A stretch of DNA of 64,000 bases. Source: an uncultured Actinomycetes bacterium. GTDB taxonomy: Bacteria; Actinomycetota; Thermoleophilia; RBG-16-64-13. The DNA is taken from positions 224,001 through 288,000 of the forward strand of contig CAVPLM010000003.1 of the NCBI GenBank assembly GCA_963706025.1, read 5' to 3'. The translations under genes and the position numbers were made by a program. This document shows, one piece after another, positions 10,101 to 63,834 of this stretch (within the stretch, counting starts at the first letter, position 1; every line of letters begins with the position of its first letter). The notes under the pieces were generated by a model that worked only from the letters and a program-made list of their open reading frames with translations, did no database searches and was not told the DNA's origin.

Positions 10101-10578
10101 GCCGGTGCGGCCCAGTCGCTCTCCCGTGCTGCGCGGCGAGACCCGGGAGAAGGTCACGGGCTGCGGCAGTCTCTACGTCACCGTCAACGAAGACGACTTC
10201 GGTCCCAGGGAAATCTTCGCCAACATGGGGAAAGCCGGCGGTTGCGCTTCGGCGTCCACCGAAGCTATTGGACGACTCATCTCCCTGGCCTTCCGTTACG
10301 GGGTGCCACCCGACAAGATCGTGAAACAGCTCAAAGGTATCCGCTGTCACGTGCCTCTGGGATTCGGTCCCAATCAGATCCTTTCCTGCCCCGACGCTAT
10401 CGGCAAAGCGCTGGCCGACAAGTATCATCTCGCCAGCGGCAATGGCGGCAAGACCGTGGGCCAACTGGAGATCCCCATCTCGTTGGCGCAAGGCGCATGC
10501 CCGGACTGCGGCGGAGCGGTCGAGCACGAGGGCGGTTGCGTGGTATGCCGTTCATGCGGCTATTCCAAGTGCGCGTGA
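7152..10578 (+). CDS. nrdJ: Class II adenosylcobalamin-dependent ribonucleotide reductase with intein and C-terminal TSCPD/Zn-ribbon domain; one frameshift near 8080
   Basis: [32 protein letters not shown]|[45 protein letters not shown]...CRSCGYSKC. Confidence 0.93.
8004..9147 (+). mobile_element. Intein with LAGLIDADG homing endonuclease, inserted before the thiyl-radical Cys of NrdJ
   Basis: CITGDTLV block [11 protein letters not shown] block B, LGWLVGDG and [19 protein letters not shown] motifs, PVFDLTEP block F, NGIVISN|C end. Confidence 0.93.
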
Positions 10579-10685
10579 AACGAGTTCTAGGGTGCGTCGC
10601 GCGCGAAGCGCGCCACCCGGGTGCGTCTGGCGCCGGGCGCTGCCCGCCGCGCTCGGCGAGAGTTAAGGGTGGAGTGACCATCTTC

Positions 10686-48443: not shown

Positions 48444-49466
48444 ATGGGTGTTGATCTCTTCATCGACTATCTCATCAAGGTCACCCCTGAGATCGACGAG
48501 AAGTTGCACGGGTACCTGGCCGGGGTCCCGGAGGGCAGCCCTCTCCACCAGTATCTGTACGGGATCCTGGACGAGTTCATCGTCCGCGGAGGCAAACGGG
48601 CGCGACCGGCTCTGGCCATGCTGGCGTGCGAGGCGGTGGGTGGCGAGCCGCGCAAGGCCCTGTCCGCCGGTTGTGCGATCGAGTTCTTCCATGCAGCGGC
48701 GCTTATCCACGACGACATCATGGATGCGAGCCTACTTCGCCGCGGTCAGAAGTGCGCGCACATCCTGCACGGCGCACCGCTGGCCATCAACGCCGGCGAC
48801 TACGCTCTGGGCCTGGTATGCACCATCGTGGTGCGCGATCCGTTGCTCGACGACGCCACCAAGTTGGCGGTCCTAGACGTCATCGGCGAGATGAGCGCCC
48901 GTACGGTCGAGGGTCAGGCGCTCGACGTGGGCTGGGTGCGCGACGACGTCTACGACCTTACTCTCGATGACTACCTGCAGATGGCTCTAGGCAAGACCGG
49001 GTACTACTCCGGCATTGCTCCGGTCAAGGTGGGATCGATCATCGGGGGGGCCACGAACGAGGAGAAAAAGGCGCTCGAAGGTTTTGGAAAGAGCTCTTCC
49101 ATCGCTTTTCAGATACAGGACGATCTTCTCAACATCCTGGGCGACGTCGACACCATGGGTAAGGACTACCTCACCGACGTGGTCGAGAGCAAGCGGACGC
49201 TCATGGTGATCCACTGCCTGACGGTAGCGGAGCCGGTGGATAGAGAGCGGCTTGTGGAGATCTTGCGTTTGGGACACGGCAAGAACCTGGAGCATGCGGC
49301 GGAGGTGTTGGAGCTGCTGCGGCGTTATGACTCCATCGGGTTCGCGCGCGCCCAAGCCCGCGATCTAATCAAGGAGGCGCGCGAGTGTCTCGGCGTTTTG
49401 CGGGCATCACCTGCCCGTGACGTGCTGGAGTCGATGGCGGACTTCTTCCTGGAGCGGGAGAAGTAG
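48444..49466 (+). CDS. Trans-polyprenyl diphosphate synthase
   Basis: GGKRARP, IHDDIMD..LRRG, GQALD, KT, FQIQDDLLN. Confidence 0.92.
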   Translation: MGVDLFIDYLIKVTPEIDEKLHGYLAGVPEGSPLHQYLYGILDEFIVRGGKRARPALAMLACEAVGGEPRKALSAGCAIEFFHAAALIHDDIMDASLLRRGQKCAHILHGAPLAINAGDYALGLVCTIVVRDPLLDDATKLAVLDVIGEMSARTVEGQALDVGWVRDDVYDLTLDDYLQMALGKTGYYSGIAPVKVGSIIGGATNEEKKALEGFGKSSSIAFQIQDDLLNILGDVDTMGKDYLTDVVESKRTLMVIHCLTVAEPVDRERLVEILRLGHGKNLEHAAEVLELLRRYDSIGFARAQARDLIKEARECLGVLRASPARDVLESMADFFLEREK

Positions 49467-49467
49467 G

Positions 49468-51131
49468 GTGGACGACGCGAGACTGAAGGCGCTGCGCGGA
49501 CTCCCGTCGGTGGAGGAACTGGTAAGCCACTCGGCTGCGGCAGCCCTCCTGGAACGCTACCCGCGGGTTCAGGTGGTCGAAGCGGCCCGGGTGGCGGTGG
49601 AGGCGGTGAGGCAGGCGATCGTGACCGATGGCCCGACGAGCGGCGGAGACACCCGGACCGTCGGCGCTGTGGCGGCTGCGCGAGCCGACGCTTCCTCGGA
49701 GACGCTTCTCGCCCAAATGGCCGTCATCTTGGAGTCGTGGGCGCGGCCGGGCCTGCGGCGGGTCTTCGACCTGAGCGGAGTAGTGGTCCACACGAACCTG
49801 GGTCGCGCTTGCCTGGCCGAAAGCGCGGTGGAGCGGGTGACGGAAATCGCTCGTTCTTACAGCAACCTGGAATACGATCTGGAAGCGGGAGTCCGCGGCC
49901 GGCGTGAGGTCCACGTTGAAGCCCTGCTCACTCGGCTGACCGGTGCAGAGGCCGCCTTCGTGGTCAACAACAACGCGGGCGCGATGCTGCTCCTCTTGAT
50001 GGGACTGGCCTCCGGGCGCGAGGTCCTGGTCTCGCGGGGACAATTGGTGGAGATCGGCGGTTCTTTCCGGCTGCCGGAGATCATGCGTGCAGGAGGCGTT
50101 CGGCTGGTGGAGGTGGGGACGACCAACCGGACCCGGATCTCGGACTACGAAGCTGCCATCACTGCCGAGACCGCGCTGTTGCTGCGGGTGCACACCTCCA
50201 ACTACCGGATCCTCGGCTTCGTCGAGGAAGCCGATTTGGCCGAGCTGGTCGATCTGGGCTGCCGGCGAGGTCTGCCGGTCGCCGACGACCTGGGTAGCGG
50301 CGCCCTGTACGAGCTCGACGCGTTCCTCGGGGAGCCGGCGGTGATGGCGTCGTTGCGGGCGGGCGTGGATGTGGTCTGCTTCAGCGGGGACAAGCTGCTG
50401 GGCGGTCCGCAGGCCGGGATCCTCCTCGGCCGGGCCGAGTTGATCGACAGACTCCGCGGGCACCCGGTAGCCCGTGCTCTACGCCTGGACAAGATGACGC
50501 TGGCCGCGCTGGAGGCGACCCTTCGTCTGTATCAGGACCCGGACCGGGCCCGTCGGGAGATCCCCACGTTGCGCTATCTCAGCCGCACTTCGGCGGAGAC
50601 GAGCGCGCTGGCCTCGGCTCTGCAGGCGGCCATCGAGCGGCGCTGCGGGGACGGTTTCATCCTGGAAGTGGAGGAGTCGAGCGCTCGGGCCGGCGGTGGC
50701 TCGATGCCGCTGGTGGAATTGCCGTCGCATGCCGTACGCATAAGGTTCCCGGAACAACCGGTACAGAGCGGAGCGCAGGGCGGGTCTGCCCGGCCCGCGG
50801 GAGCGGCCGGGGGTCCCGGAGGTTCGGCCGCCACGGACGCGGGGACCTTGCGGGCTTCCGGGCCCACGGTCTCGGCGCTGGAAGCGCAACTGCGCCGGGC
50901 GCCGATCCCCGTGGTGGCGCGGGTATCGCAGGACAGCCTCCACTTGGACGTGCTGGCTCTCGCTGAGAGCGAGGTGGAGGCCGCGGCCGAGAGCGTCGCC
51001 TGGGCGATCGAGCAGCTGGTGGGTCCGCCTACCGGGACGCCGACGGGGCCCTCGACCGGCCCTCCGGCCGGGGCGCCGGCTGCGGCCCCACCCGGGGCCT
51101 CGGCGGGTCTTCGACCGGGGCGGGGCCGTGA
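49468..51131 (+). CDS. selA: L-seryl-tRNA(Sec) selenium transferase; likely ends at the GTGA overlap with selB after a frameshift in a low-complexity tail (raw ORF runs to 51399)
   Basis: HTNLGRA, SNLEYDL, VNNNA, EIGGSFR, EVGTTNRT, DLGSG, FSGDKLLGGPQAG. Confidence 0.93.
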
Positions 51132-53197
51132 CCAAGGGGTCGACGCCCGCGGCGGGTGCGGGCTTGGAGGCGGCGCCCGGCCCCCGGGCGCCCGGGAACC
51201 GGGAGGCTGGGGGTCGGGGGTCCGGAGCAGCGCGTCCCCTGACCTTGGGGACCGCAGGTCACATCGACCACGGCAAGACCACCCTCATCAAGGCCCTTAC
51301 CGGTCGGGACACCGACCGGCTCAAAGAGGAGAAGGAGCGGGGCATCAGCATCGAGCTTGGCTTCGCCGAGCTGGTATTGCCCAGCGGCCGGCATCTTAGT
51401 GTGGTCGACGTTCCTGGGCACGAGCGTTTCGTCAAGACCATGGTGGCCGGGGCCACGGGGATCGACCTCTTCCTGTTGGTGGTGGCCGCCGACGACGGGG
51501 TCATGCCTCAGACCCGAGAGCACCTGCGCATCATCGAACTGCTCGACATCCCTACCGGCATGGTGGCCCTCACCAAGGTCGATGTCGTCGAGCGCGATCT
51601 GGCCGAGTTGGCGCGCGCCGACGCGGAGGAGTTCCTTGCCTCCACCCGTTACGCGGGGGCGCCGATCGTGGCGGTCAGCGGCGTGACGGGGGAGGGACTG
51701 CCCGAGCTGCTGGCCGCGCTCGACCGGTTGGGGGAACAGGTACCGCCGCGCCCCGCGTATCCCGCGACCCGCATGCCGGTCGACCGGGTCTTCTCCCTGA
51801 AGGGGATCGGGACCGTGATCACCGGCACCCTGTGGTCGGGGAACCTCAGCGCCGAAGACACGGTAGCTATTCTCCCGCCCCGGGCCGCTCGAAGCTCCGC
51901 CGGACTTCGCGACATACGGGTGCGGAGCGTGCAGGTGCACGACCAGGAAGTGGCTGTGGCCACCGGCGGCCAACGAGTAGCGCTGAACCTCACGGGCGTC
52001 GACCGAGATGAAGTCGACCGCGGGCAGTGGGTGGTGAAGGATCCCGCCATCAATCCCACCTTCCTGGCCGACGTGCACCTGATGTTGCTGGCCGACGCGC
52101 CCGGCGGGCTGTCCAGGGTGTCCCGGGCGCGGGTGGACCACGGGACCGCCGAGATACTGGCCAAGGTCGTGCTTGCCGACCGCGAATCCCTCGAGCCGGG
52201 AGAGTCCTGCTACGCCCAAGTACGTTTCGAAAGACGGGCCTTGGTGTATCCGGGCGACCAGTTCATCCTCCGCTCGGTCACGCCCGTTACCACTATCGGT
52301 GGGGGCCGGGTGATCGATCCCGCGCCGCATAAACACAGCACCGGGCCGCGGTGGCACGAGCGTCTCGCCTTGCTGGAGCAGGGACCGCCGGACGGGATCG
52401 CCGCCCTATTGCTCGAAGAATCGTTCCCGCGTTTCCTGGTCCGCGGGAGACTGGAAGCCAGTCCTTACCTCTGGCGTTTTGCCACCACTGATGTGGGCGC
52501 GGCCGTCGCCCGCCTGCTGGCGGACGGCCGCGCCCTACCGGTCCTCGGCGTCGGGACTACGGGCGCCGCGAGTGCCCGGCTTCTCCATGGGCCGCGGCTT
52601 CTGTCGCTGACCGAGACCACTCTGGGCACCCTGCGGGCCCAGGCCGAAGACGACGGATTGAACCCATATCTCACCCTCGGCGAGTTGCGGCGGCGCTTGG
52701 CAGGGGGCAAGGAGTGGCCGGCGCTCGACGCCGCGCTCGAGCGACTCCAGGCCGCCGACGAAGTCCTCCGTAGTGAGCATGGCTATCGCTGGGCGGGAGC
52801 TGTCGTCGCGCCGGATACCGCCGAGAGCCTGGTGATCGAGCGCCTGTTGGAGCAATTCACGGCGCCAGGCGCCGCCGAGACGCCGAGCGTGGTCGTGGCC
52901 GCGACGGCCGCCGGGCTCGTGCCTCGCGAGGCGCAGAAGATGGTTGACGCCTTGGTCCGTCAGGGCCGGTTGATCAAGGTAGGCGAAGACCTCTACTACC
53001 CGCAGGACCGGCTGCAGTCGCTCATGGATCGCCTGTCAGCCGCCATGGAGGCGGCCGGGCAACTGACCCTGGCGGAAGCCCGCGATCTGCTTGGCACGTC
53101 GCGGCGTTATGCCCAGGCCCTTCTCGAGCACATGGATTCTGAAGGCCTGACCCTCCGGGTGGGTGAGGCGCGGCGCCTGCGGCGCCGCCGCCGGTGA
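51128..53197 (+). CDS. selB: Selenocysteine-specific elongation factor
   Basis: [33 protein letters not shown]-terminal winged helix [19 protein letters not shown]. Confidence 0.95.
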
Positions 53198-53449: not shown

Positions 53450-54559
53450 GTGAAGATCAAAGCGGCTGTCCTACGGGAAGTCAAGAAAGGCTACAGTATC
53501 GAGGAACTTGAGCTCGAACCGCCACGTGCGGGTGAGGCCCTTATCAAGTATGCCTACACCGGCTACTGCCACAGCGATCTGAGCAACCTCATGGGCCGGA
53601 TCGAGATGGCCTTGCCGATGGTGGCCGGCCACGAATGCGCCGGCGTCGTCGAGGCCGTTGGCCCGGGCGTGACCCGCGTGAAGGTGGGCGATCACGTTGC
53701 CAGCGCGTGGATGGTCCCCTGCGGGGACTGCCCCGAGTGTCGCCGCGGGCTAGGCAATGTCTGCTCGGGCAACTTCCAGCACTTCGTCGGGGGCACCATG
53801 CTCGACGGTACCACCCGCATCAGGGACGCCAAGGGCAAGCCGGTTCTGCACGGCAACTTCGTATCCGGCTTCTCCGACTATACGGTGGCCCCCGAGGGCG
53901 CACTCGTGCCCATCCGCAAGGACATGCCTCTCGACTGGGCCTCCCTGATGAGTTGCTGCGTTCCCACAGGTTGGGGGACGGTAACCAAGCTGGCCAATGT
54001 CCAGCCTGGGGACAAGGTCGCCGTATGGGGCCTGGGAGGCGTGGGTCAGAACACGCTCCGCGCGGCCAAGATGCGGCAGGCCAACCCCCTCATCGCAGTG
54101 GATCTCGAGGAGTCCCGACGCGACCTCGCCCTCGAGTTGGGCGCCACGCACTTCATCTGCAATTCGCAGGAGGACCCTGTCCCGATCATCCAGGGGCTGA
54201 CAGGCGGGGGCGCGAACTTTATCTTCGAGTGCAGCGGAGACCCGGGCGCCCTGGTGCAGGCCTGGTGGGCACTGGGAGCGGCCGGTCGCCTTATGGTCAT
54301 CGGGATCATGGCCCAAGACCAGGTGGCGCCCATGCCCCTGACCTTCATGGCCCTGCAGCAGAAGGCGATGATCGGCGGGCTCTACGGTTCCATCTCGACA
54401 AAAGACGACATCCCGAAATTGGTCGATCTCGCGATGACCGGGGAGCTGAAACTGGACAAGATAGTAGAGGGCAAGTTCAAGCTCGAACAGATAAATGAGA
54501 TCGCCGAGAAGATGGAGAAGCGGCAGCTCGGCGGGCGCTGGGTCTGCGAATGGGACTGA
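53450..54559 (+). CDS. Zn-dependent MDR alcohol dehydrogenase, probably mycofactocin-coupled
   Basis: CHSD, GHECAG, CGDCPEC...C structural Zn, GLGGVG; directly upstream of mftA. Confidence 0.88.
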   Translation: MKIKAAVLREVKKGYSIEELELEPPRAGEALIKYAYTGYCHSDLSNLMGRIEMALPMVAGHECAGVVEAVGPGVTRVKVGDHVASAWMVPCGDCPECRRGLGNVCSGNFQHFVGGTMLDGTTRIRDAKGKPVLHGNFVSGFSDYTVAPEGALVPIRKDMPLDWASLMSCCVPTGWGTVTKLANVQPGDKVAVWGLGGVGQNTLRAAKMRQANPLIAVDLEESRRDLALELGATHFICNSQEDPVPIIQGLTGGGANFIFECSGDPGALVQAWWALGAAGRLMVIGIMAQDQVAPMPLTFMALQQKAMIGGLYGSISTKDDIPKLVDLAMTGELKLDKIVEGKFKLEQINEIAEKMEKRQLGGRWVCEWD

Positions 54560-54593
54560 GAGGCTGACGCGCTCTTCCTGACGGAGGGAATAC

Positions 54594-54719
54594 ATGGATA
54601 CGACGTTCGACGACGCCCTGGCCAATGTCCCCAGCCCCGCTTGTGCCGAGGAGCCGGCGATCCTCGAGGAAATCGAGGTCGAGGATCTGGCCGTAGACGG
54701 CATCTGCGGTGTCTACTGA
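54594..54719 (+). CDS. mftA: Mycofactocin precursor peptide, 41 aa; not in the supplied ORF track
   Basis: GGAGG RBS; MDTTFDDALANVPSPACAEEPAILEEIEVEDLAVDGICGVY*, matching the IDGxCGVY C-terminal signature. Confidence 0.95.
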   Translation: MDTTFDDALANVPSPACAEEPAILEEIEVEDLAVDGICGVY

Positions 54720-54972
54720 GCGAACGAGCGAGTATCTCGTGCCGGACTGGGTCCGCGTGCGGCGCGAGAGCTTCGGGCTGCTCTTCTACGATACCCGTTC
54801 CACTAGGCTGACGTTCGTGCGCTCCGGTGACAGCCTGGCGCCTCCGCCCTTCACCGGCCCCCTTCGCGCCCTCCGCGTGAACCCGGTCGACGAGGGGCGG
54901 CGTCCGGCGGTGTCGCGACTCCTGCAGAGCCTTGTAGCCAAAGGCCTCATCGTTGCCGCCGAGCCTCAGTAG
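54709..54972 (+). CDS. mftB: Mycofactocin RRE chaperone
   Basis: VRVRRESFGLLFYDTRSTRLTFVRS, L..L..KGLI; lies between mftA and mftC. Confidence 0.9.
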   Translation: MSTERTSEYLVPDWVRVRRESFGLLFYDTRSTRLTFVRSGDSLAPPPFTGPLRALRVNPVDEGRRPAVSRLLQSLVAKGLIVAAEPQ

Positions 54973-56018
54973 CACCCGGCTCCGCGCGCCGGTCAACGTC
55001 ACCTGGGAGATCACCGAGGCGTGTAACCTCCGCTGCACCCATTGCTTGTCCGCCGATCTGTGGGCGGGGGGGCGGGGCGAGCTCGACCTGGGCCAGTGCC
55101 GGGCTCTCATCGACGAACTGGCGCGCATGGAGGTCTTCCAGGTGAACTTCGGAGGCGGAGAGCCCTTCCTACGGGACGATTTCCTCGACATCCTCCGCTA
55201 CGCGCATTCCCGGGGCATTACCAACTGCGTCAGCACCAACGGGACGTTGCTCGAACGACGCTCTTGTCGATGAGCTACTGCGAGTGGCGCCCGTCTACCT
55301 ACAGGTGAGCCTTGACGGCGCGTGCGCCGATACCAACGACGCCATCCGAGGCCGGGGGACCTTCGCCCGCATCCTCGCGGGTATCGAGCTTCTCTCCGAG
55401 CGCGGCTATCCCGACTTCAGCCTCAACCTGGTGGTCACCCGCCTGAACGTGGCCGAGATCGCGGACTTCGACCGGCTCGCCCGGCGCTACGGCGCCAAGA
55501 CCCGTCTCTCCCGTTTCCGCCCCTCTGGAGCGGGGTGCAGCATCTGGGAGGACTACCGGCTGACCCGGGACCAGCTCCTGGCGCTCTCGGCCTTTCTGGG
55601 GGACCACTCGGAGATCCTGACCGGCGATTCGTTCTTCGCCCTTACCCCGGAGAGTCGCCGGGCCCTGGGGCTGAACATGTGCGGCGCGGCGAAGATGACC
55701 TGCGCCGTGGCGCCCGACGGCAGCGTCTATCCCTGCGCTTTCCTCTGTCACCCCGACTTTCTCGCCGGCAACGTCACCGCCGAGCCGTTCGCGGCCATCT
55801 TCCGCTCCTCGCCGGTGCTCGAACGGTTCCGGGAGCTCGAGGTAGATACGTGCCGCACCTGCGACCGCTTCTCCGTCTGCCACGGTGGCTGTCCGGCGGT
55901 GGCGTGTTTCCTCACTGAGTCGCTGGACCATCCCGACCCGGAGTGCCTGCGTGCTGTGTTGCCCGTCACGGAAGCGGTGCCCGTCAGGGAGGCGATACCC
56001 GCCAAGGAGGTGGCCTAG
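54953..56018 (+). CDS. mftC: Mycofactocin radical SAM/SPASM maturase, frameshift near 55255
   Basis: APVNVTWEIT, CNLRCTHC, GGGEP, STNG, QVSLDG, RFRPSG, LNMCGA..TC....DG.VYPC, CRTC...CHGGC, DPEC. Confidence 0.92.
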
Positions 56019-56021
56019 GCC

Positions 56022-57972
56022 ATGCAGTTCCCCAACCTCTTCAGCCCTTTGCGGATCGGTCGGGTGACCGTGCCCAACCGCATCTCCTTCTCCGCCCATC
56101 TGACGAACCTCGCGGATGACGCACTGCCCACCGACCGGCTCACACACTACCTGGCGGCCCGCGCCCGGGGCGGGACCGGCCTGATCATTACCGAAGAGCA
56201 GTCCGTCCACCCCACCGACCGGGCCTACGAGCGACTTATCGAGGCCTTCCGTCCGGAGGTCATCCCCGGCTACAGGCGGCTCACTCAGGCGGTCCACGCC
56301 TACGACACCCGCATCTTCGCCCAGCTCAACCACAACGGGCAGCAGTGCAGCGGCAGCCTTTCCCGGCTTCCCGTGTGGGCGCCCTCCCCCGTTCCGGACG
56401 TGCTCTACCGGGAGACGCCCAAGGCCATGGAGATCGAGGACATCCAGGAAATGATCGATCACTTCGCGCTTTCCGCGGTCCATGTCCGCGAAGGCGGGTT
56501 CGACGGGGTGGAGCTGCAGTTCGGTCACAGCTCGCTGGTGCGCCAGTTCATGTCGCCGCTCACGAACTATCCGGGGCGACGAGTACGGCGGCGACTTCGA
56601 GAACCGGATCCGGTTCGCCCTGCAGGTGATCGCCGCGGTCCGTGAGGCGGTGGGCGCCGACTTCACCCTGGGCGTACGCCTCTGCGCCGACGAGCTGATC
56701 CCCGGGGGACTCACCCTCGACGACGCCAAGCAGATCGCGCAGCGGCTCGAAGCGACCGGCCACCTGGACTACTTCAACCTCACTCTGGCCACCTTCTACA
56801 ACCTCTATCTGGTCGGGGGCCCCATGCATCTGCCTCTGGGCTACGCGGTCCCCTTGGCGGCCGGTATCAAGGAGGTGGCGACGCTCCCGGTGTTCGCCAC
56901 CGGGCGCATCAACGACCCGGCGATGGCCGAGCGGGTGCTGGCCGAAGGACAGGCCGACATGATCGGGGTGGTGCGGGGCCAGATCGCCGACCCCGACTTC
57001 GCCCGCAAGGCCCGCGAGGGCCGGACCGAGGAGATACGCTACTGCATAGCCTGCAACCAGAATTGCTACGGACGGGTGGGGCTCAACAAGACGATCGGGT
57101 GCGTCCAGAACCCCTTCGTAGGTCACGAAGACACCGAGGGAGAGTCGCATCTCCGGCCTGCGCTACGCAAGAAGCGGGTAATGGTCGTGGGCGGGGGCCC
57201 AGCGGGCATGTGGGCGGCCAAGATCGCCACCCTGCGGGGACACCAGGTGACCCTGTACGAGAAGGCCGAGGAGCTCGGCGGCCAGGTGCTCCTGGCCGCG
57301 AAGGGAGCAGGCAGGGACGAGTTCGGGGTGATCGTGCGTAACGAGCGCAACCAGTTGGCCCATCTGGGGGTGCCCGTGGAGCTTGGCGTGGAGGTCACGC
57401 CGGAGCTCGTTCTCGAACAGCAGCCGGACGCGGTGATCGTGGCCACCGGGTCGCGTCCCAAGGCCAGCCCGGTCGCCGGCGCCGACGGCCCCCATATCTT
57501 CAACGTGTGGCAGGTCCTGAGCGGGGAGGCAGAGCTGGGCGAGAAGGTGCTCTTGATCGACTACGACGGCCACCACCAGGCGACGGCCACGGCGGAGTTC
57601 CTCGCCGAGCTCGGCAAGACCGTGCACGTGGTGACCTCGAGCCTCTTCGTGGGAGCTGAGCTGGGTCCGTCGCAGGATCTCTATCTCACCCGGCAGCGAC
57701 TGCTCCAGAAAGGGGTCACCTTCACCCCCGACTTCGCGGTCATGGAGATCAAGGGCACGGAGGTCCACGGTTTCAACGTCTACTCCAATGTCTGGGACGT
57801 GTTCTCGGGTCACGACAGCATCGTCACCGCCATGGGCAACGACGCCTACGACGGTCTCTACTTCGCCCTCAAGGGGAAGGTACCCGAGCTCTACCGTATC
57901 GGCGACTGCGTGGCGCCGCGGAAGGTGGACATGGCCATCCACGAAGGCTACATGGCCGGCAAGCGCGTGTGA
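56022..57972 (+). CDS. FadH/OYE (TMADH-like) flavoenzyme with 4Fe-4S, mycofactocin-associated type; frameshift near 56570
   Basis: NRISFSAH, RARGGTGLII, GFDGVELQ..H, N.R.DEYGG..ENR, CIACNQNC-x11-C, VVGGGPAG. Confidence 0.88.
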
Positions 57973-59060
57973 GTACCAGTGGCGACAACGCGACGCCCGC
58001 GGTGGCTGCCGGCCCTAGCAGCGGCGGCGCGCGCGCCCTCCTCGTGGTCGTCGAGCCGCCGAGCGGAGGGAGCGAAGCGGTCGGAATGGTCGGCGCGGCG
58101 GGGGCCGTTCTCCTCACCGAAGGCGCCCGGCTCGCTCGCGATCTGGGGGTAGACCCGCACTTTGTCACCTGGCCGGCCGGGGCGGAAGTCGACCCCGAGC
58201 TGCTGGCCGCGGCGCTGGCCGATCTCGTCGAGCACACGCGGGCGAGGGCCGTCGTACTGGCCGACACCGATGTCGGCCGCCAGCTCGCGCCCATGGTGGC
58301 CCACCGACTGGGCTCCGGGGCCGTAGTAGGCTGCAGCGACGTGCTGCTGCGCGAGGAAGCCGAGGGGGGCGGCCGGGCGGGCCGGCGGGCGGACGGTGGA
58401 CCGGGCTCCTGCGCGGAAGGTGGACGGGGACCGCGGACCCTTGCGTTCGTGAAGCCGGTCTACGGGGGCTGGTTGGAACGGGAGATCGAACCCGGGGCCG
58501 GCGTCGTACCGGTCGCGACCCTGGACCTCACCGGGATGGAGGCGCCGGACTCTCCTTCGGACGGGTTGCCGACCCCAGAGGTCCTGCAGATCGAGGTCGG
58601 CGCGCCCGGCGCGCAACCGCACGTCCAGCACCTCGAGACCATCCCCCCGGACCCTCGGTCCGTGGACCTGGTCCATGCCAGACGCATCGTGGCCGCTGGG
58701 GCGGGAAGTGCGAGCGAAGATCTCCTGGCCGCGGTGCGGGAGCTGGCCGAGCTTCTCGAGGGTTCGGTGGGAGCTACTAGGCCGGTGGTCGACGACGGGC
58801 GCCTCCCCAAGGAGCGGCTTATCGGTCAGACGGGTAGGACGGTGACCCCTGAGTTGTACCTCGCGCTTGGGATCTCGGGTTCCCCTCACCACGTGGCGGG
58901 GGTGCGGAAGGCCGATCGGATCCTCTCTATCAACCGGGATGTACGTGCCCCCATCTTCCAGTTCTCCGACGTCGGCTATGTCGCAGACCTGGAGGTGGTG
59001 CTGCCCGGCCTCGTGCAGAGGATCAAGGAGTGGCGGGATGCCCCCGGCAGTCCCGACTAG
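57969..59060 (+). CDS. fixB: Electron transfer flavoprotein alpha subunit
   Basis: KPVYGG, GATRPVVD, IGQTGRTV.PELYLALGISG, INRD..APIF..SDVG.VADL. Confidence 0.9.
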   Translation: MSTSGDNATPAVAAGPSSGGARALLVVVEPPSGGSEAVGMVGAAGAVLLTEGARLARDLGVDPHFVTWPAGAEVDPELLAAALADLVEHTRARAVVLADTDVGRQLAPMVAHRLGSGAVVGCSDVLLREEAEGGGRAGRRADGGPGSCAEGGRGPRTLAFVKPVYGGWLEREIEPGAGVVPVATLDLTGMEAPDSPSDGLPTPEVLQIEVGAPGAQPHVQHLETIPPDPRSVDLVHARRIVAAGAGSASEDLLAAVRELAELLEGSVGATRPVVDDGRLPKERLIGQTGRTVTPELYLALGISGSPHHVAGVRKADRILSINRDVRAPIFQFSDVGYVADLEVVLPGLVQRIKEWRDAPGSPD

Positions 59061-60483
59061 CCCCGTTGGCGCATCCACCGGTAGCGGCGCAGGCGTTCGC
59101 GGAGGCTCCGCCCCGGGTGCGCCCACTCCCGGCGCCTCCGTCCGCGGCTCCTCCGGAGGGTTCGATGCCATAGTCGTCGGCGCGGGCCCGGCCGGCACGA
59201 GCGCGGCGCTCGGCCTAGCACAGAAAGGGGCCAAGGTCCTCCTCCTGGAGCGAGGCGAGTACCCCGGGGCCAAGAACATGTTCGGCGGGATGACGGCCTA
59301 CTGCCCGGCTCCAGAGCAGCTGGTACCCGACTTCTGGGAGCGTGCTCCTTGGGAGCGAGCGGTGACCAAGCGGGTGCTCTCCGTGGTGGGCGAGGCTTCC
59401 TCCACCTCGCTGGTCTTCCATGCCAACTCCGACTCCGATCGACCCTCGGCGGGCGCCGGCTCGACCTCCGACCGGACCCTGACCGGGTTCACCCTCTTCC
59501 GCCCTCTCTTCGACCGCTGGTACGCGGAGCAGGCGGTCGCCCAGGGAGTGACCCTGCTCACCGGCTGCCGCGCGGAGGGTCTGCTGATGCGCGATGGAGC
59601 CGTCCGGGGAGTGCGTGTGACTGGGGTCGACGACATCGTGGAGGCTCCTCTGGTCATCGCCTGCGACGGGACCCTGTCCTTCCTGGCCCAAGAAGCCGGG
59701 CTGCATGGAGGCTTCAAGCCGGAACAGGTGGCGCTCGGAGTCCGAGCTCTTTACCGGCTGACCGAGGAGGAGATCAACGACCGCTTCGGCCTCACCGGCC
59801 GCGAGGGCGCTACCCACGAGTTCCTGGGCTGCACAGAAGGGATCCGTGGAGGCGGCTTCATCTACACCCAGACCGAGACCCTCTCGGTGGGCCTGGTGAT
59901 GCACCTCGACTCGCTGAAATCACGGGGGATACCGCCCTACGAGATGATGGAGCGTTTCATCGTCTCCAGCCCGGTGGCTTCGATGCTTCGGGGGGCCCGG
60001 CTGGTTGAGTACTCGGCCCACCTGCTGCCGGAGGCCGGCATGCGCATGGTACCTCGCTTGTCCACCGAGGGATTGCTGGTCGCCGGGGACGCCGCCGGGT
60101 TCTGCTACACGAACGGACTCACCCAGGAAGGGATGAACCTGGCCATGACCTCGGGCCTCGTGGCAGGCCGGGTGGCCGCGGAAGCCCTGGCCGAGGGCGA
60201 CTTCTCCGCGGCCCGTCTCGCGCGCTACGCGGAAGAACTCAAGCAGAGCTTCGTCCTGCGCGACCTGACCACGTTCGGTCGGGCCATCGATTTCCTGCAC
60301 CATGACCGGCTGTTCACGGTCTACCCGCGGGTGGTGAGCGCGCTCATGGAGGACGTCTACCGCTCCGACGGCAGCCCCAAGGAGAAGATCGGCCGCCTGG
60401 GCCGCAGGGCGGTGAAGGACGAGGTACCGTTACGTCAGCTGATCGCGGACCTGTTCGGAGGAGGGAGGGCGTTCCTGTGGTAG
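59038..60483 (+). CDS. fixC: FixC-like ETF:quinone oxidoreductase flavoprotein
   Basis: FDAIVVGAGPAG, ERGEYPGAKNMFGG, APWER, GGGFIYT..E..SVG, EYSAHLLPE, GDAAG, GMNLAMTSG. Confidence 0.9.
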   Translation: MPPAVPTSPVGASTGSGAGVRGGSAPGAPTPGASVRGSSGGFDAIVVGAGPAGTSAALGLAQKGAKVLLLERGEYPGAKNMFGGMTAYCPAPEQLVPDFWERAPWERAVTKRVLSVVGEASSTSLVFHANSDSDRPSAGAGSTSDRTLTGFTLFRPLFDRWYAEQAVAQGVTLLTGCRAEGLLMRDGAVRGVRVTGVDDIVEAPLVIACDGTLSFLAQEAGLHGGFKPEQVALGVRALYRLTEEEINDRFGLTGREGATHEFLGCTEGIRGGGFIYTQTETLSVGLVMHLDSLKSRGIPPYEMMERFIVSSPVASMLRGARLVEYSAHLLPEAGMRMVPRLSTEGLLVAGDAAGFCYTNGLTQEGMNLAMTSGLVAGRVAAEALAEGDFSAARLARYAEELKQSFVLRDLTTFGRAIDFLHHDRLFTVYPRVVSALMEDVYRSDGSPKEKIGRLGRRAVKDEVPLRQLIADLFGGGRAFLW

Positions 60484-60752
60484 TCGATGAACTGTTCGAC
60501 CTGGTGAGCTACCGGATCCACCCCGAGGCACACATCCTCCTAAACCAGGACGTCTGCCAGGACTGCACCCATCGCGCGTGCACCTTTGCCTGCCCCGCGC
60601 GCTGCTACACCTGGAGCGAGGAGCGAGCCCGGGTGGAGTTCGCCTACGAGGCATGTCTGGAATGCGGCACCTGCCTGCTCCTTTGCGACCGCGAAGCTCT
60701 TGACTGGCATTACCCCCATGGAGGGTATGGTGTGCGCTTCCGACTCACATAG
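60477..60752 (+). CDS. fixX: FixX-like ferredoxin
   Basis: CQDC....CTFACPARCY, EACLECGTC, W.YP.GGYGV. Confidence 0.9.
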   Translation: MVVDELFDLVSYRIHPEAHILLNQDVCQDCTHRACTFACPARCYTWSEERARVEFAYEACLECGTCLLLCDREALDWHYPHGGYGVRFRLT

Positions 60753-60888
60753 TTTCCAAGCGGCCACTCCGATTGCCGGTGGGATTCCGCCGTGGCGTCC
60801 GCGCCGTCGGCGACCGCGCGCGGCGGCGAGGCCCGCTCTCGCCGCGCGGACTCGCCGGCATGTGGGCGCCCCCATGGGGAGTCTACCG

Positions 60889-61863
60889 ATGAAGCTGCTC
60901 GTCTTCCTGGAGCTGGGCGCCGACGTGCGCATCCCGCCGGAGCGCGATTCGCGCAGCGGACGTGTCCGCGAGGATTGGCTCGTGCGGGAGATCGATCCGG
61001 CCGGCGCTCGTGCCCTCGACCTTGCGTTGGGCGTGAAGGCGGCCCGACCGGGTACCGAAGTGACCCTTTTCCACCTCGGGCCGCCGAACAACGAACCCTG
61101 GCTCCGTCAAGCCCTGGCCCGGGGCTGCGACCGGGCGGTGCGCGTCTGGGATGACGAGGTCGCCGAGGTCCGAGCCGCGGGCAAGGCGGTCGTCCTGGCC
61201 GCCGCCGCGGAGGCAGCCGGCTTCGACCTTGCTCTTGCTGGAGCCGCAGGCGTCATCAACAACAGCGGTCAGTTCGGTGTGCTTCTCGCCGCTCATCTGG
61301 GCTTGCCCTGCGTGACCCAGGTGATCGACATCGTGCTCTCGGACGGCACAGGTAGCGTGGAGATGAGCCGCGGTCTGGACAAGGGCTTTCGCGAGCGGGT
61401 GGAGGTGCCCCTGCCCGCCGTGGTGACCGTAGCGGCCGGCGGGCCCACTTCAGATGGCGCGCCGCCGCCCGATGTCTCTGCCGCCGCCTTCCTGGCTGCC
61501 CATGACTACGAGATCACGGTGTGGGACCTGGCCGACCTGGGAGTGCCCCGCGAGAGGGTCCGGCGCGCCGACCAGCCCCTCAGATACGGCCGTCCCCGTC
61601 CTCGTCAGCCCCGGCTTCATAATCTCGCGGCGCCCGACCCAGCTCTGCCGGCTTTCGACCGTATCCTGGAGCTTGTCCGAGGATCGGTGCAGACGCGTCA
61701 GGGCCGCGTCGTTCAGCAGCCCGCGGAAGCGATCGTAGAGGAGATCTTCAAGACTCTGAGGGATGAGGGCTGGCTCGATCACCTCCGTGCCGGCGAGGGC
61801 CGCGGTGCCGATGGCTCGATCCCCGCCGCCGGCCCGACCCCGGAGGCCGGTGAGCCTCTTTGA
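60889..61863 (+). CDS. fixA: Electron transfer flavoprotein beta subunit, divergent
   Basis: ALDLAL, LGPP, LRQALARGCDRAVRV, DL.LAG, LAAHLGLPCVT, LPAVVTV, W..ADLG. Confidence 0.8.
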   Translation: MKLLVFLELGADVRIPPERDSRSGRVREDWLVREIDPAGARALDLALGVKAARPGTEVTLFHLGPPNNEPWLRQALARGCDRAVRVWDDEVAEVRAAGKAVVLAAAAEAAGFDLALAGAAGVINNSGQFGVLLAAHLGLPCVTQVIDIVLSDGTGSVEMSRGLDKGFRERVEVPLPAVVTVAAGGPTSDGAPPPDVSAAAFLAAHDYEITVWDLADLGVPRERVRRADQPLRYGRPRPRQPRLHNLAAPDPALPAFDRILELVRGSVQTRQGRVVQQPAEAIVEEIFKTLRDEGWLDHLRAGEGRGADGSIPAAGPTPEAGEPL

Positions 61864-63404
61864 TACCCTTGGAGTACCGGCTTCGTGAGTCGGTGCGGTT
61901 CGAACAGAATACCGACGGTACCTGGTGCGTAGTATCCGAGCTGCCTCTCAGCGTGGTGACGGTCAACGCGTCCGCCGTCCGGCTCTTGGAACGTACCCGT
62001 GACGGCGCCTCGATCACCGATATCGCTGCCGAGCTCCGCATTCCTGAAGAACGGATCTTCACCCTATGCGAGTACTTTCGCGGCCGGGGGATCCTCGAAG
62101 TCGGCCGGTCGAGTCCCGATCCCGACTTCGCGCCGTCGGCAACGGTGATCGTCCCCACCCGCGACCGCGCGAACGATCTGGACGACTGTCTGGGCGCTCT
62201 TGCTCACCTGGACTACCCGCGCGACCGGCTCGAAGTGATCGTCGTCGACGATGGCTCCGCCGACCCGGACGCGGTCGCGGAAGTCGTCGCTCGCCACGGT
62301 TGCCGCCTGCTGGTCAACGAGCGCAACCGAGGCCCCTCCTACTCGCGCAACCGAGCCGCCCGCGAAGCGGCGGGCGAGATACTCGCGCTGGTCGACAGCG
62401 ACTGCGTGACCGGCCCGGGCTGGCTCCGGGAACTCACGCCCTACTTCTCCTGGGAACGCGTGGGAGCGGTAGGAGGCCGTACGCTCGGCTACTACACCGA
62501 GTCGCGGCTCGACCGATACGAGGAGGTCGCTTCTCCTCTCGACATGGGCAGGCATCTGGTCCTGAAGACGCGAGGAAGCGACACGTTCTACGTTCCCACG
62601 TGCAATCTCCTGGTGCGCCGGTCCGTGTACCTCGATCTGGGGGGCTTACGCGAAGACCTGCTTGTGGGTGAGGACGTGGACTTCTGCTGGCGTCTCCGGG
62701 CATCCGGGGCCTATCTCGTATACGCCCCCGAAGGGACGGTGCGCCATAAGCACCGCAACCACCTGGGTTCGATGCTCCAGCGGCGGGCGGACTACGGGAC
62801 CTCCGAAGCCACGCTCCACGCGCTCCATCGCGACAAGCGCAAGCGCTTCCCGCTGGCCCCGGCTCCCTTGGCGACCGTAACCATGTTCTCAGCGGCTCTG
62901 GTCGGGATGCAGCCAGGGTTGCTGCCTATCTGCTTGGCGCCGCCGCTGTGGGACGGGGCGCGTCGTTCACTTCATCTGCGGCGCAGCGGGATCGATCTGC
63001 CCGCCGGGCGCGTGTGGTCTTCCGTGTTCCGTGGACACCTCTCCATGCTCTACTTCGTCTACTTCCATCTTGTGCGGTACTACCTGGTGCCTTTGGCCAC
63101 GGCGGGTCTCTTTGCCCCGGGTGTTCGGCTGCTCACTGCCTTCGCCGTCCTGTACTCCTCGGCCGTCGACTACTCCACCAAAGGGCCTCGGATCGGTTAC
63201 CCCACGTACCTCGGCTACTACCTGGCGGAGCACACGGCATATCAGATGGGTGTCATCGCGGGCTGCGTCCGCGCGCGGACCTTCCGGTCGTATCTACCGG
63301 CGGTCCAGCGGGACCGGTCGTCCGGAGACTGGCAGGCCGCGCGGGAAGAGCCCCAGGGCCACGCTGCCAGGATGCGCGGTGCCAGAACCCGTGTTTCTGG
63401 GTAA
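61860..63404 (+). CDS. mftF: Mycofactocin glycosyltransferase (GT2)
   Basis: VIVPTRDR, VVDDGS, N.GP...RN, VDSD, L.RYE...SPLDMG, YVPTCNLLVRR, GEDVDFCWR, YGTSEA.L. Confidence 0.9.
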   Translation: MIPLEYRLRESVRFEQNTDGTWCVVSELPLSVVTVNASAVRLLERTRDGASITDIAAELRIPEERIFTLCEYFRGRGILEVGRSSPDPDFAPSATVIVPTRDRANDLDDCLGALAHLDYPRDRLEVIVVDDGSADPDAVAEVVARHGCRLLVNERNRGPSYSRNRAAREAAGEILALVDSDCVTGPGWLRELTPYFSWERVGAVGGRTLGYYTESRLDRYEEVASPLDMGRHLVLKTRGSDTFYVPTCNLLVRRSVYLDLGGLREDLLVGEDVDFCWRLRASGAYLVYAPEGTVRHKHRNHLGSMLQRRADYGTSEATLHALHRDKRKRFPLAPAPLATVTMFSAALVGMQPGLLPICLAPPLWDGARRSLHLRRSGIDLPAGRVWSSVFRGHLSMLYFVYFHLVRYYLVPLATAGLFAPGVRLLTAFAVLYSSAVDYSTKGPRIGYPTYLGYYLAEHTAYQMGVIAGCVRARTFRSYLPAVQRDRSSGDWQAAREEPQGHAARMRGARTRVSG

Positions 63405-63480
63405 GAGATGACCATAGGGCCGAAATGGGCTTGATGTCGGAGGACCTGGAGAAACGGTTGACCTGGCTGGGAGGAAGAAG

Positions 63481-63834
63481 ATGGGTCGCTTGGTGGATGT
63501 CGGAGCAGCGGGGGACTTCGCAGACGGGACGATGCGGGCGGTGACCGTCGAGGGGCGCGAGCTGCTGGTCGCCCGGGTGGGCGACGCGTACTACGCAGCC
63601 GACGAACGGTGCCCTCACATGGGGGGAAGGCTGTCCCAGGGCAAGTTGGAGGGCACGATCGTCACCTGTCCTCGGCACGGATCTCGCTTCGACCTGGCCG
63701 ACGGGCGCATGGTCCGGTGGACCGACTGGTCGGGTCTCACCCTCACTCTGGCGAAGACATTCAAGTCGCCGCGGCCCATCAGAACCTATGCCACACAGGT
63801 ACAGGCTGACCGTTTGACGGTGGAGCTCGAGTAA
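63481..63834 (+). CDS. Rieske [2Fe-2S] ferredoxin
   Basis: CPHMGG and CPRHGSRFDL motifs. Confidence 0.9.
   Translation: MGRLVDVGAAGDFADGTMRAVTVEGRELLVARVGDAYYAADERCPHMGGRLSQGKLEGTIVTCPRHGSRFDLADGRMVRWTDWSGLTLTLAKTFKSPRPIRTYATQVQADRLTVELE

Follow-up and report, generated by a model that had tools for sequence, protein, structure and literature searches.

Here we report a mycofactocin (mft) operon with an embedded electron-transfer module of five genes, found in a 64,000-nucleotide stretch of DNA (hereafter the window) from an uncultured Actinomycetes bacterium. The window corresponds to C3:224001-288000 of a 3.66-Mb metagenome-assembled genome (MAG) of 30 contigs, with a completeness of 92.3% and a contamination of 7.3%. 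Its MftF relatives point to a position among Gaiellales/Thermoleophilia-like Actinomycetota. Between mftC and mftF, the operon encodes a flavoenzyme of the OYE family (OYE_2), the two subunits of an electron transfer flavoprotein (ETF) and two proteins of the FixC and FixX types. Comparative analysis revealed that this module tracks the loss of MftD, not that of MftG. We propose a model, which in our judgment has an even chance of being correct, in which an O2-independent outlet from OYE_2 via ETF and FixCX to menaquinone forms and/or re-oxidizes the keto group of the cofactor.

Organization of the operon

Eleven genes on the plus strand occupy positions 53450-63834 of the window in the order ADH-mftA-mftB-mftC-OYE2-etfA-fixC-fixX-etfB-mftF-Rieske. 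They are tightly spaced, mostly overlapping and otherwise separated by a few bases. The direction, content and order of this run are those given in the initial annotation of the window, which had overlooked two frameshifts, in mftC and OYE2. Families were assigned with NCBIfam profiles and their curated cut-offs (in bits), and the scores agree with the earlier description of a mycofactocin locus with embedded ETF and FixCX genes. The genes are as follows.

53450..54559, plus strand: Zn-dependent alcohol dehydrogenase (ADH), nearest the NDMA-dependent (nicotinoprotein) subfamily (TIGR03989, 317.9 bits, under the cut-off of 440)
54594..54719, plus strand: mftA, variant-type precursor of 41 residues (variant_MftA NF040489, 40.9 bits, cut-off 30)
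54709..54972, plus strand: mftB, precursor-binding chaperone (TIGR03967, 46.7 bits, cut-off 33)
54953..56018 (54953-55273 + 55284-56018), plus strand: mftC, radical SAM/SPASM maturase in two frames (two profile pieces)
56022..57972 (56022-56645 + 56482-57972), plus strand: OYE_2, FadH/OYE-family flavoenzyme with flavin mononucleotide (FMN), [4Fe-4S] and flavin adenine dinucleotide (FAD) domains, in two frames (TIGR03997)
57969..59060, plus strand: ETF large (alpha) subunit of the mycofactocin-associated type with a divergent N-terminal half (NF038209, mft_etfA, 140.2 bits, cut-off 240)
59038..60483, plus strand: FixC-type ETF:quinone oxidoreductase flavoprotein (PRK10157, 316 bits, under the cut-off of 610)
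60477..60752, plus strand: FixX-type ferredoxin-like protein with two Cys clusters (PRK15449, 48.4 bits)
60889..61863, plus strand: ETF small (beta) subunit of the mycofactocin-associated type (TIGR04503, mft_etfB, 74.3 bits, cut-off 200)
61860..63404, plus strand: mftF, mycofactocin glycosyltransferase (TIGR03965, 355.8 bits, cut-off 280)
63481..63834, plus strand: Rieske-type [2Fe-2S] ferredoxin of 117 residues (AndAb/HcaC/NirD-like, 40-50 bits)

The locus is a genuine mycofactocin operon that harbours an ETF/FixCX set and in which the core families MftA, MftB, MftC (counted as a split copy) and MftF are clustered. It is the only mft locus of the genome, which also has a single fixCX pair. 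The precursor exceeds the TIGR03969 cut-off as well (27 versus 25) and terminates in VDGICGVY, with the Cys-Gly-Val-Tyr end that marks family membership; the final Val-Tyr is retained in all ETF-type loci. The sole in-frame start of fixC is the ATG at 59038, preceded by AAGGAG.

Conservation of the module

We probed the best 80 of 212 MftF relatives by tblastn with the window proteins, a set that was picked by the likeness of MftF to that of the window and describes a clade rather than all mft systems. Sequence upstream of mftF spans 8 kb or more in 49 of the related loci, of which 39 contain all five genes of the module and one contains four of them; seven are compact mftABC-mftF loci and two lack mftC. 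The fixC/fixX-type block is thus kept in the mft loci of relatives, as the initial annotation had anticipated. Module-bearing loci are found in at least five phyla (Actinomycetota, Thermodesulfobacteriota, Acidobacteriota, Chloroflexota, and Bacillota), and their OYE2 is 64-92% identical to that of the window in all but a few rows, those of Bacillota being lower. The order ADH-A-B-C-OYE2-etfA-fixC-fixX-etfB-F occurs in MAGs labelled Gaiellales, Thermoleophilia, Syntrophorhabdales, other Thermodesulfobacteriota and Acidobacteriota, and also in many Dehalococcoidales MAGs. Chance does not account for the layout, since this order is found again in dozens of loci spread over several phyla. A rearranged order, OYE-OYE-etfA-fixC-fixX-etfB-B-C-F, is present in Pelotomaculum, in Peptococcaceae and in the complete genome of Ca. 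Formimonas warabiya (L090). The variant clade is confined almost wholly to anaerobic lineages.

Three of the four other OYE_2 genomes of the actinobacterial sample described below share a second layout, mftC-OYE_1-OYE_2-etfA-fixC-fixX-etfB-mftE, accompanied by a mycofactocin-coupled short-chain dehydrogenase. In this layout OYE_1, OYE_2, ETF alpha and MftE all exceed their curated cut-offs; MftE is kept and MftD is absent. Two scans with its ETF alpha and OYE_2, with the best 80 loci kept in each, yielded 158 further actinobacterial loci. Of these loci, 99 extend over 15 kb or more, and 67 of the 99 carry MftE; no Saccharopolyspora record is among the best 80 loci kept in either scan. This two-OYE/ETF/FixCX/MftE form (L116-L273) abounds in MAGs of Acidimicrobiia (Ilumatobacteraceae, Microthrixaceae), and at least 569 OYE_2 relatives were found. 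The OYE/ETF type is also found in MAGs labelled Ilumatobacteraceae, Acidimicrobiia and Streptosporangiaceae, which are largely aerobic lineages, so the anaerobic circuit originally suggested for the locus is too narrow a frame.

A third type contains only mftA, mftB, mftC and mftF (L039, L043, L073, L074, L083, L089, L094, L095). Its precursor ends in Ile-Tyr (GICGIY) in seven of the eight loci and in GICGVY in L039, and its hosts are MAGs labelled delta proteobacteria, Desulfomonile, Desulfobacteraceae and Acidobacteriota. In many Dehalococcoidales loci, a second, unclassified radical SAM/SPASM gene directly follows mftF (L046:11427-14923; L047:10218-11405), followed on the opposite strand by a TIGR03989-like ADH and a LarA-like racemase. 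The same downstream layout is indicated by tblastn matches in unannotated L049, L058, L059, L065, L068, L078 and L084. Some Chloroflexota loci have genes between mftC and OYE2, which we rejected as stand-ins for MftD or MftE; they encode an ACR3 transporter, lipoprotein-like proteins and unknowns.

Mutual exclusion of the module and MftD

Genome-wide profile searches returned no MftD, MftE, MftG or MftR over cut-off, in agreement with the initial annotation. The best scores are 31.1 bits for MftD (TIGR03966, cut-off 470.85), 65.6 bits for MftE (TIGR03964, cut-off 172), 20.3 bits for MftG (TIGR03970, cut-off 387.45; the Gordonia/Dietzia models TIGR04542 and NF038210 were not searched) and 39.2 bits for MftR (TIGR03968, cut-off 224.9). 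The 16 kb that follow the window downstream contain none of the four genes either.

Co-occurrence was counted over curated cut-offs in 251 Actinomycetota genomes, of which the unpublished G179, G023 and G244 enter the denominators only. MftC is present in 26 genomes, in addition to the split copy described here, and MftD in 21, all of them MftC-positive. OYE_2 is present in four (G246, G178, G127, and G035) plus this genome, and its genome set has zero overlap with that of MftD, which bears out the predicted anticorrelation with mftD. The one other genome that has MftC and lacks MftD is G204, in which mftC lies on a 5-kb contig. MftE is found in 24 genomes. MftG is found in nine, seven of which are MftC-positive and belong to one family, the other two being marginal and without MftC. 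Since MftD, MftE and MftG exceed their cut-offs elsewhere in this sample, the detection searches work. Beyond it, MftD is absent from all 49 genomes behind the related loci (E<=1e-40). MftE exceeds its cut-off in none of these 49 either, 16 of them having a distant creatininase-family match of 64-94 bits. No MftD-like match occurs in the 158 further actinobacterial loci, and two canonical control loci gave 764 and 506 bits. Among 121 genomes from the class of a Dehalococcoidales carrier, MftC is present in one, that of the carrier itself.

The module therefore tracks the loss of MftD and, in the clade of the window, excludes MftE as well. The anticorrelation with mftG that had also been predicted did not hold: MftG is present in only 7 of the 26 MftC-positive genomes and is likewise absent from 14 of the 21 MftD-positive genomes, so that the module is not specific to MftG loss. 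Given this rarity among MftC-positive genomes, the absence of MftG here says little. Of the initial idea that ETF plus FixCX replaces MftG, the chain with a quinone outlet is kept as a proposal; its specific link to MftG is unsupported, and the exclusion of MftD takes its place.

These counts bear on an alternative in which OYE_2/ETF/FixCX serves recycling only, as a counterpart of MftG that feeds the quinone pool, and the keto group and peptide cleavage are provided by unlinked enzymes. A dedicated ETF and quinone reductase would suit a high-flux catabolic route, MftG is in none of the 4+1 OYE_2 genomes, and the compact loci show core maturation without OYE_2. In addition, PMC11778925 puts the share of MftC genomes without MftG at about 25% and treats the nature of a substitute as an open question. 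However, the 14 MftD-positive genomes without MftG leave no specific anticorrelation, and recycling alone would not explain the strict exclusion of MftD. Moreover, the second actinobacterial form has the module between mftC and mftE, the canonical position of mftD. We consider recycling alone a possible but doubtful explanation.

The OYE_2 flavoenzyme

The OYE_2 of the related locus L018, an intact orthologue, was compared with solved structures in the PDB. The best matches are 2-naphthoyl-CoA reductase (NCR; 314.8 bits) and FadH (275.9 bits), followed by trimethylamine dehydrogenase (TMADH; 207.9 bits) and histamine dehydrogenase (203.9 bits); the best NCBIfam neighbours of OYE_2 are BaiCD and bilirubin reductase. 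A GGGPAG motif of the FAD type and three Cys residues of the cluster motif are invariant across 25 OYE_2 orthologues. The second dinucleotide site is an invariant D..DGHHQAT, at the place of GCGGIG in FadH and NADTYFMA in TMADH. Because the NAD(P)H motif is degenerate and resembles the site of TMADH, OYE_2 is probably unable to use NAD(P)H and would need a protein redox partner. The [4Fe-4S] motif (residues ~341-348 in L018) has the majority consensus C-V-A-D-N-Q-G-C, in which the second Cys is replaced by Asp, and reads C-I-A-C-N-Q-N-C in the clade of the window.

In the alignment, Cys30 of TMADH corresponds to a Leu in OYE_2, and the TMADH string 'YGGAH' corresponds to 'HNGQQ'. We take Cys30 to be the 6-S-cysteinyl FMN link of TMADH, and Tyr169/His172 to be its active-site pair. 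OYE_2 thus has neither the Cys nor the Tyr/His pair that mark the trimethylamine/histamine dehydrogenase family.

ETF, FixC and FixX and the proposed route to quinone

NF038209 and TIGR04503 are the best or near-best families for the two ETF subunits of the window, yet both subunits score under the cut-offs; the ETF alpha of L100 exceeds that of NF038209 (283 versus 240). The match of the large subunit to solved ETFs is limited to the C-terminal FAD domain (118.8 bits with 7koe_B). The small subunit, represented by its L018 orthologue, best matches 1o94_C, the ETF beta that partners TMADH (70.5 bits), and scores 38.5 bits with the bifurcating Thermotoga maritima subunit. Group-2 ETFs, which are Fix-type and bifurcating, have RXGV and GXXSPTXV motifs in the small subunit and RPXFGG in the large one, and mutation of the Arg of RPXFGG abolishes ferredoxin reduction (PMC10734219, accessible part). 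In the window ETF, the RXGV site reads REDW, GxxSPTxV is absent and the RPxFGG site reads KPVYGG, with Lys for Arg. By regular-expression search, for which there was no positive control, GxxSPTxV occurs in 0 of 53 small-subunit orthologues and exact RPxFGG in 0 of 46 large ones. The other ETFs of this genome also lack the group-2 motifs. Chloroflexota ETF orthologues keep an REGL string and the Arg; the Arg is also present in most of the large subunits that are not actinobacterial. To judge from these motifs, the window ETF is apparently non-bifurcating and bifurcation is unlikely. The labels fixA and fixB that had been given to its genes are withdrawn, the subunits being without group-2 motifs and closest to mycofactocin-associated ETF models.

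FixC aligns with 7koe_C over residues 42-451 (219.3 bits), and FixX aligns with 7koe_D over both of its Cys-rich stretches (67.7 bits). They are clear homologues of the menaquinone-reducing EtfC and EtfX of 7KOE, and quinone binding is predicted. A MenG/UbiE methyltransferase exceeds its cut-off in this genome and in five of five other ETF-type genomes, and heme-copper oxidase subunit I was not found in this genome. Given the reported E0' of premycofactocin of -255 mV (PMC11778925, accessible part), menaquinone reduction would be downhill.

The same comparisons bear on the opposite direction, in which ETF and FixCX would feed OYE_2 to reduce an unsaturated substrate or mycofactocin, like CaiA-FixABCX or NCR/FadH/BaiCD, and the ETF might bifurcate between quinone and ferredoxin. 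The nearest solved relatives of OYE_2 are indeed reductases, as are its NCBIfam neighbours BaiCD and bilirubin reductase. The best-known FixCX pair is that of the bifurcating EtfABCX, and the R-E-G-L of Chloroflexota small subunits resembles RXGV, in addition to the Arg kept by most non-actinobacterial large subunits. Against this stand the two motifs missing from all 53 and 46 orthologues, the Lys of the window at the Arg essential for ferredoxin reduction (PMC10734219) and a small subunit nearest a non-bifurcating ETF. Moreover, electron flow from quinol to ETF would be uphill, and the cassette has no second substrate-handling gene that is conserved. We thus regard a reductase or bifurcating direction as very unlikely.

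Frameshifts in mftC and OYE2

In the deposited assembly one surplus base near 55252-55257 breaks the frame of mftC, and another near 56569-56571 breaks that of OYE2. The two MftC pieces match profile positions 7-100 (103.4 bits) and 112-334 (231.7 bits), each alone under the cut-off of 265, and the intact MftC orthologue in G035 scores 331 bits. Against TIGR03997 (cut-off 793), the OYE_2 pieces score 308.7 bits (profile 1-179) and 636.3 bits (179-644). They abut at position 179 and would total ~945 bits if the surplus base is an error; the intact G035 orthologue scores 927. Both genes are single open reading frames (ORFs) in the relatives L018 and L102, and programmed frameshifting was rejected on this ground.

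A search of sequencing runs with words of the window found a maximum share of 0.38 in any run. We aligned Logan short-read contigs from four runs of four studies to positions 54600-57000. The surplus base at 55252/55254 is missing from every covering contig in all four runs. That at 56569/56571 is missing in 6.9 of 14.7 depth in run X1, 23.6 of 50.3 in X2 and 18.8 of 18.8 in X6, with X7 giving no cover; one 134-base piece, 99% alike, also lacks the surplus OYE2 base. Contig C21, 22,148 bases long, duplicates C3:487663-509792 at 99.03% and represents a haplotig or strain copy. The two differ by 175 mismatches and, over 22 kb, 31 gap openings, which shows the assembly to be rich in small indels. 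An ETF paralogue appears split on the C3 copy and whole on the C21 copy. The frameshifts in mftC and OYE2 are thus probably assembly errors.

Alternatively, the frameshifts could be real mutations in a decaying locus, leaving the operon dead in this organism. Both genes are out of frame as deposited, and the relative L102 has a split ADH too. However, contigs from all four runs omit the base in mftC, those from three runs omit the base in OYE2 in part or all of the depth, indel noise is frequent in the assembly, and every other gene of the locus is open. Decay of the operon is therefore improbable.

Proposed model

In the proposed model, MftB and MftC would act on the Val-Tyr end of MftA, cross-linking and decarboxylating it, and the product would be glycosylated by MftF, as expected from their family membership. 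The five-gene OYE_2/ETF/FixCX module would stand in place of MftD, with OYE_2 oxidizing C3 of the mycofactocin core. Its substrate may be the precursor amine, yielding the keto group, the mycofactocinol alcohol, in recycling, or both. Electrons would pass from OYE_2 to the dedicated, apparently non-bifurcating ETF, and then through FixX/FixC to menaquinone. The full chain, alcohol -> ADH -> mycofactocin -> OYE_2 -> ETF -> FixCX -> quinone, would thus operate without O2. The module may accordingly have two roles, making the keto-amide in place of MftD and re-oxidizing mycofactocinol, as MftG does in Mycobacterium smegmatis. Gene content, conservation, MftD exclusion and motif states are observed; from them we infer each of the catalytic steps and the way in which the electrons flow.

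In the canonical route the MftD-mediated step is aerobic (PMC8406134, accessible part). According to the accessible parts of two reports, 17 Saccharopolyspora clusters lack mftD and contain TIGR03997 (BGCFlow, PMC11162802), and S. erythraea makes MMFT-2, MMFT-2H2 and MMFT-3 (Ellerhorst et al. 2022, PMC9679996, Table 2), so that the keto core appears makeable without MftD. Together with the strict exclusion of MftD, these clusters and products suggest the role of MftD surrogate.

Several points weigh against the model. The catalytic domain of OYE_2 is closer to the reductases NCR and FadH than to the amine dehydrogenase TMADH, and has neither Cys30 nor the Tyr/His pair at the aligned positions. 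MenA was not found in this genome, so the quinone claim has MenG as its single basis, and the MenG family also matches in Thermotoga. The deposited assembly has mftC and OYE2 broken. Owing to kinship, the 4+1 OYE_2 genomes and the 21 MftD genomes stand for few lineages. Among five compact-locus genomes, MftD is found in 0/5 and OYE_2 over cut-off in 0/5, so an mft system is possible with neither of them, the precursors there ending in Ile-Tyr. The accessible text on Saccharopolyspora does not mention ETF, FixC or FixX and proposes no role for OYE. A dedicated ETF and quinone reductase would be costly for one biosynthetic step. Finally, no stand-in for the MftE peptidase was found in the variant clade (0/49 over cut-off).

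The lack of a cassette gene replacing MftE suggests a more far-reaching form of the model, which we hold to be unlikely. In the clade without MftE and MftD, the substrate of OYE_2 may be the MftC-modified peptide, in which it would dehydrogenate the N-C(alpha) bond before the cross-linked core. Hydrolysis of the acyl-imine would free an amidated leader and leave the keto-amide in one step, with the electrons going via ETF/FixCX to menaquinone. If this were true, a single flavo-iron-sulfur enzyme linked to ETF would do the work of two canonical ones, and maturation of the cofactor would be tied to the respiratory chain.

Nearly all work on mycofactocin concerns aerobic mycobacteria. The literature leaves two questions: how the cofactor is recycled in the roughly one quarter of MftC genomes without MftG (PMC11778925), and how mftD-less clusters still make mycofactocin (PMC11162802 with PMC9679996). 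The OYE/ETF operon type is an obvious candidate answer to both. It would also explain how strict anaerobes (syntrophs, Dehalococcoidales, Pelotomaculum, and Ca. Formimonas) make and use a cofactor with an O2-needing maturation step. Since cultured carriers exist, the question is directly testable.

Neighbouring genes

TIGR03989 is the best family for the window ADH, which misses its membership cut-off; the ADH of L100 exceeds it (452.7 bits). By tblastn, the ADH is 62-80% identical in most cassette copies (Actinomycetota, Thermodesulfobacteriota, and Acidobacteriota) and 46-90% over all rows, and it is likely the substrate-side partner of the cofactor. In L102, from the same record as L026, the cassette ADH (9512-10619, minus strand) is in two frames of a short-read assembly, where a real lesion is possible. 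The Rieske ferredoxin, initially listed at the end of the run, was matched by tblastn in one of 80 loci (L017) and is a neighbour outside the conserved cassette. The operon is flanked upstream by selA and selB and downstream by an MMPL transporter, unknowns and sucC. The selA ORF (49417-53197 of the window) encodes 660 residues, yet the family profile stops at residue 447; its frame shares ~270 bases with the selB frame, and either a small indel or a genuine extension is possible.

Comparison with known systems

A full-text literature search found no work joining mycofactocin with electron transfer flavoprotein or ETF, supplementary tables being outside its coverage. No paper in it had mycofactocin together with FixC or FixX, and 'old yellow' returned only unrelated work.

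According to the accessible part of Haft 2011 (PMC3023750), MftA, MftB, MftC and MftF always occur together, and MftD, MftE and MftR are present in most but not all species. The canonical Mycobacterium system (mftR, mftA-F, mftG; PMC3023750 and PMC11778925, accessible parts) shares with the window an MftA ending in CGVY, MftB, MftC, MftF and an adjoining nicotinoprotein-like dehydrogenase. In contrast, the genome of the window lacks MftD, MftE, MftG and MftR, has five extra genes between mftC and mftF, and has GICGVY instead of GMCGVY in the precursor, with Ile for Met before the Cys. The Saccharopolyspora clusters resemble the window in the absence of mftD and the presence of TIGR03997, and both oxidized and reduced methylmycofactocins are made (PMC11162802 and PMC9679996, accessible parts).

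TMADH with its ETF (PDB 1O94) and histamine dehydrogenase resemble OYE_2 in the three-domain FMN/[4Fe-4S]/ADP-type architecture, the degenerate NAD(P)H motif and an ETF as acceptor, the latter being proposed for OYE_2. They differ from it in that the similarity to TMADH amounts to only 208 bits, Cys30 is replaced by Leu and the positions of Tyr169/His172 differ. By analogy, it is plausible that OYE_2 works like TMADH with an ETF acceptor. The EtfABCX/FixABCX complex of Thermotoga maritima (PDB 7KOE; PMC10734219, accessible part) has EtfC and EtfX homologous to FixC and FixX, whereas the ETF of the window is without group-2 motifs and comes with an extra dehydrogenase, OYE_2. The module is thus probably a plain ETF:quinone path rather than one of NADH bifurcation.

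Another close known system is the OYE/ETF form catalogued in NCBIfam (TIGR03996, TIGR03997, NF038209, TIGR04503, and NF040489; L099-L101 and many Acidimicrobiia), which like the window has OYE_2, the ETF pair, FixC and FixX, and no MftD. It differs in having two OYE paralogues, MftE, a canonical-type MftC and an ETF alpha over cut-off (283/240), whereas the window has one OYE, no MftE, ETF subunits under cut-off (140/240 and 74/200) and the 'variant' precursor. The layout, as yet uncharacterized in function, is therefore already catalogued, NCBIfam having models of OYE_1, OYE_2, the two ETF subunits and the variant precursor. The caution of the initial annotation that the parts are not all new is borne out by these models and by the mftD-less TIGR03997 clusters in the accessible part of the BGCFlow report (PMC11162802). 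To this known form, the window adds the exclusion of MftD rather than MftG, the apparent loss of the NAD(P)H site in OYE_2 and an ETF that is not of the Fix type.

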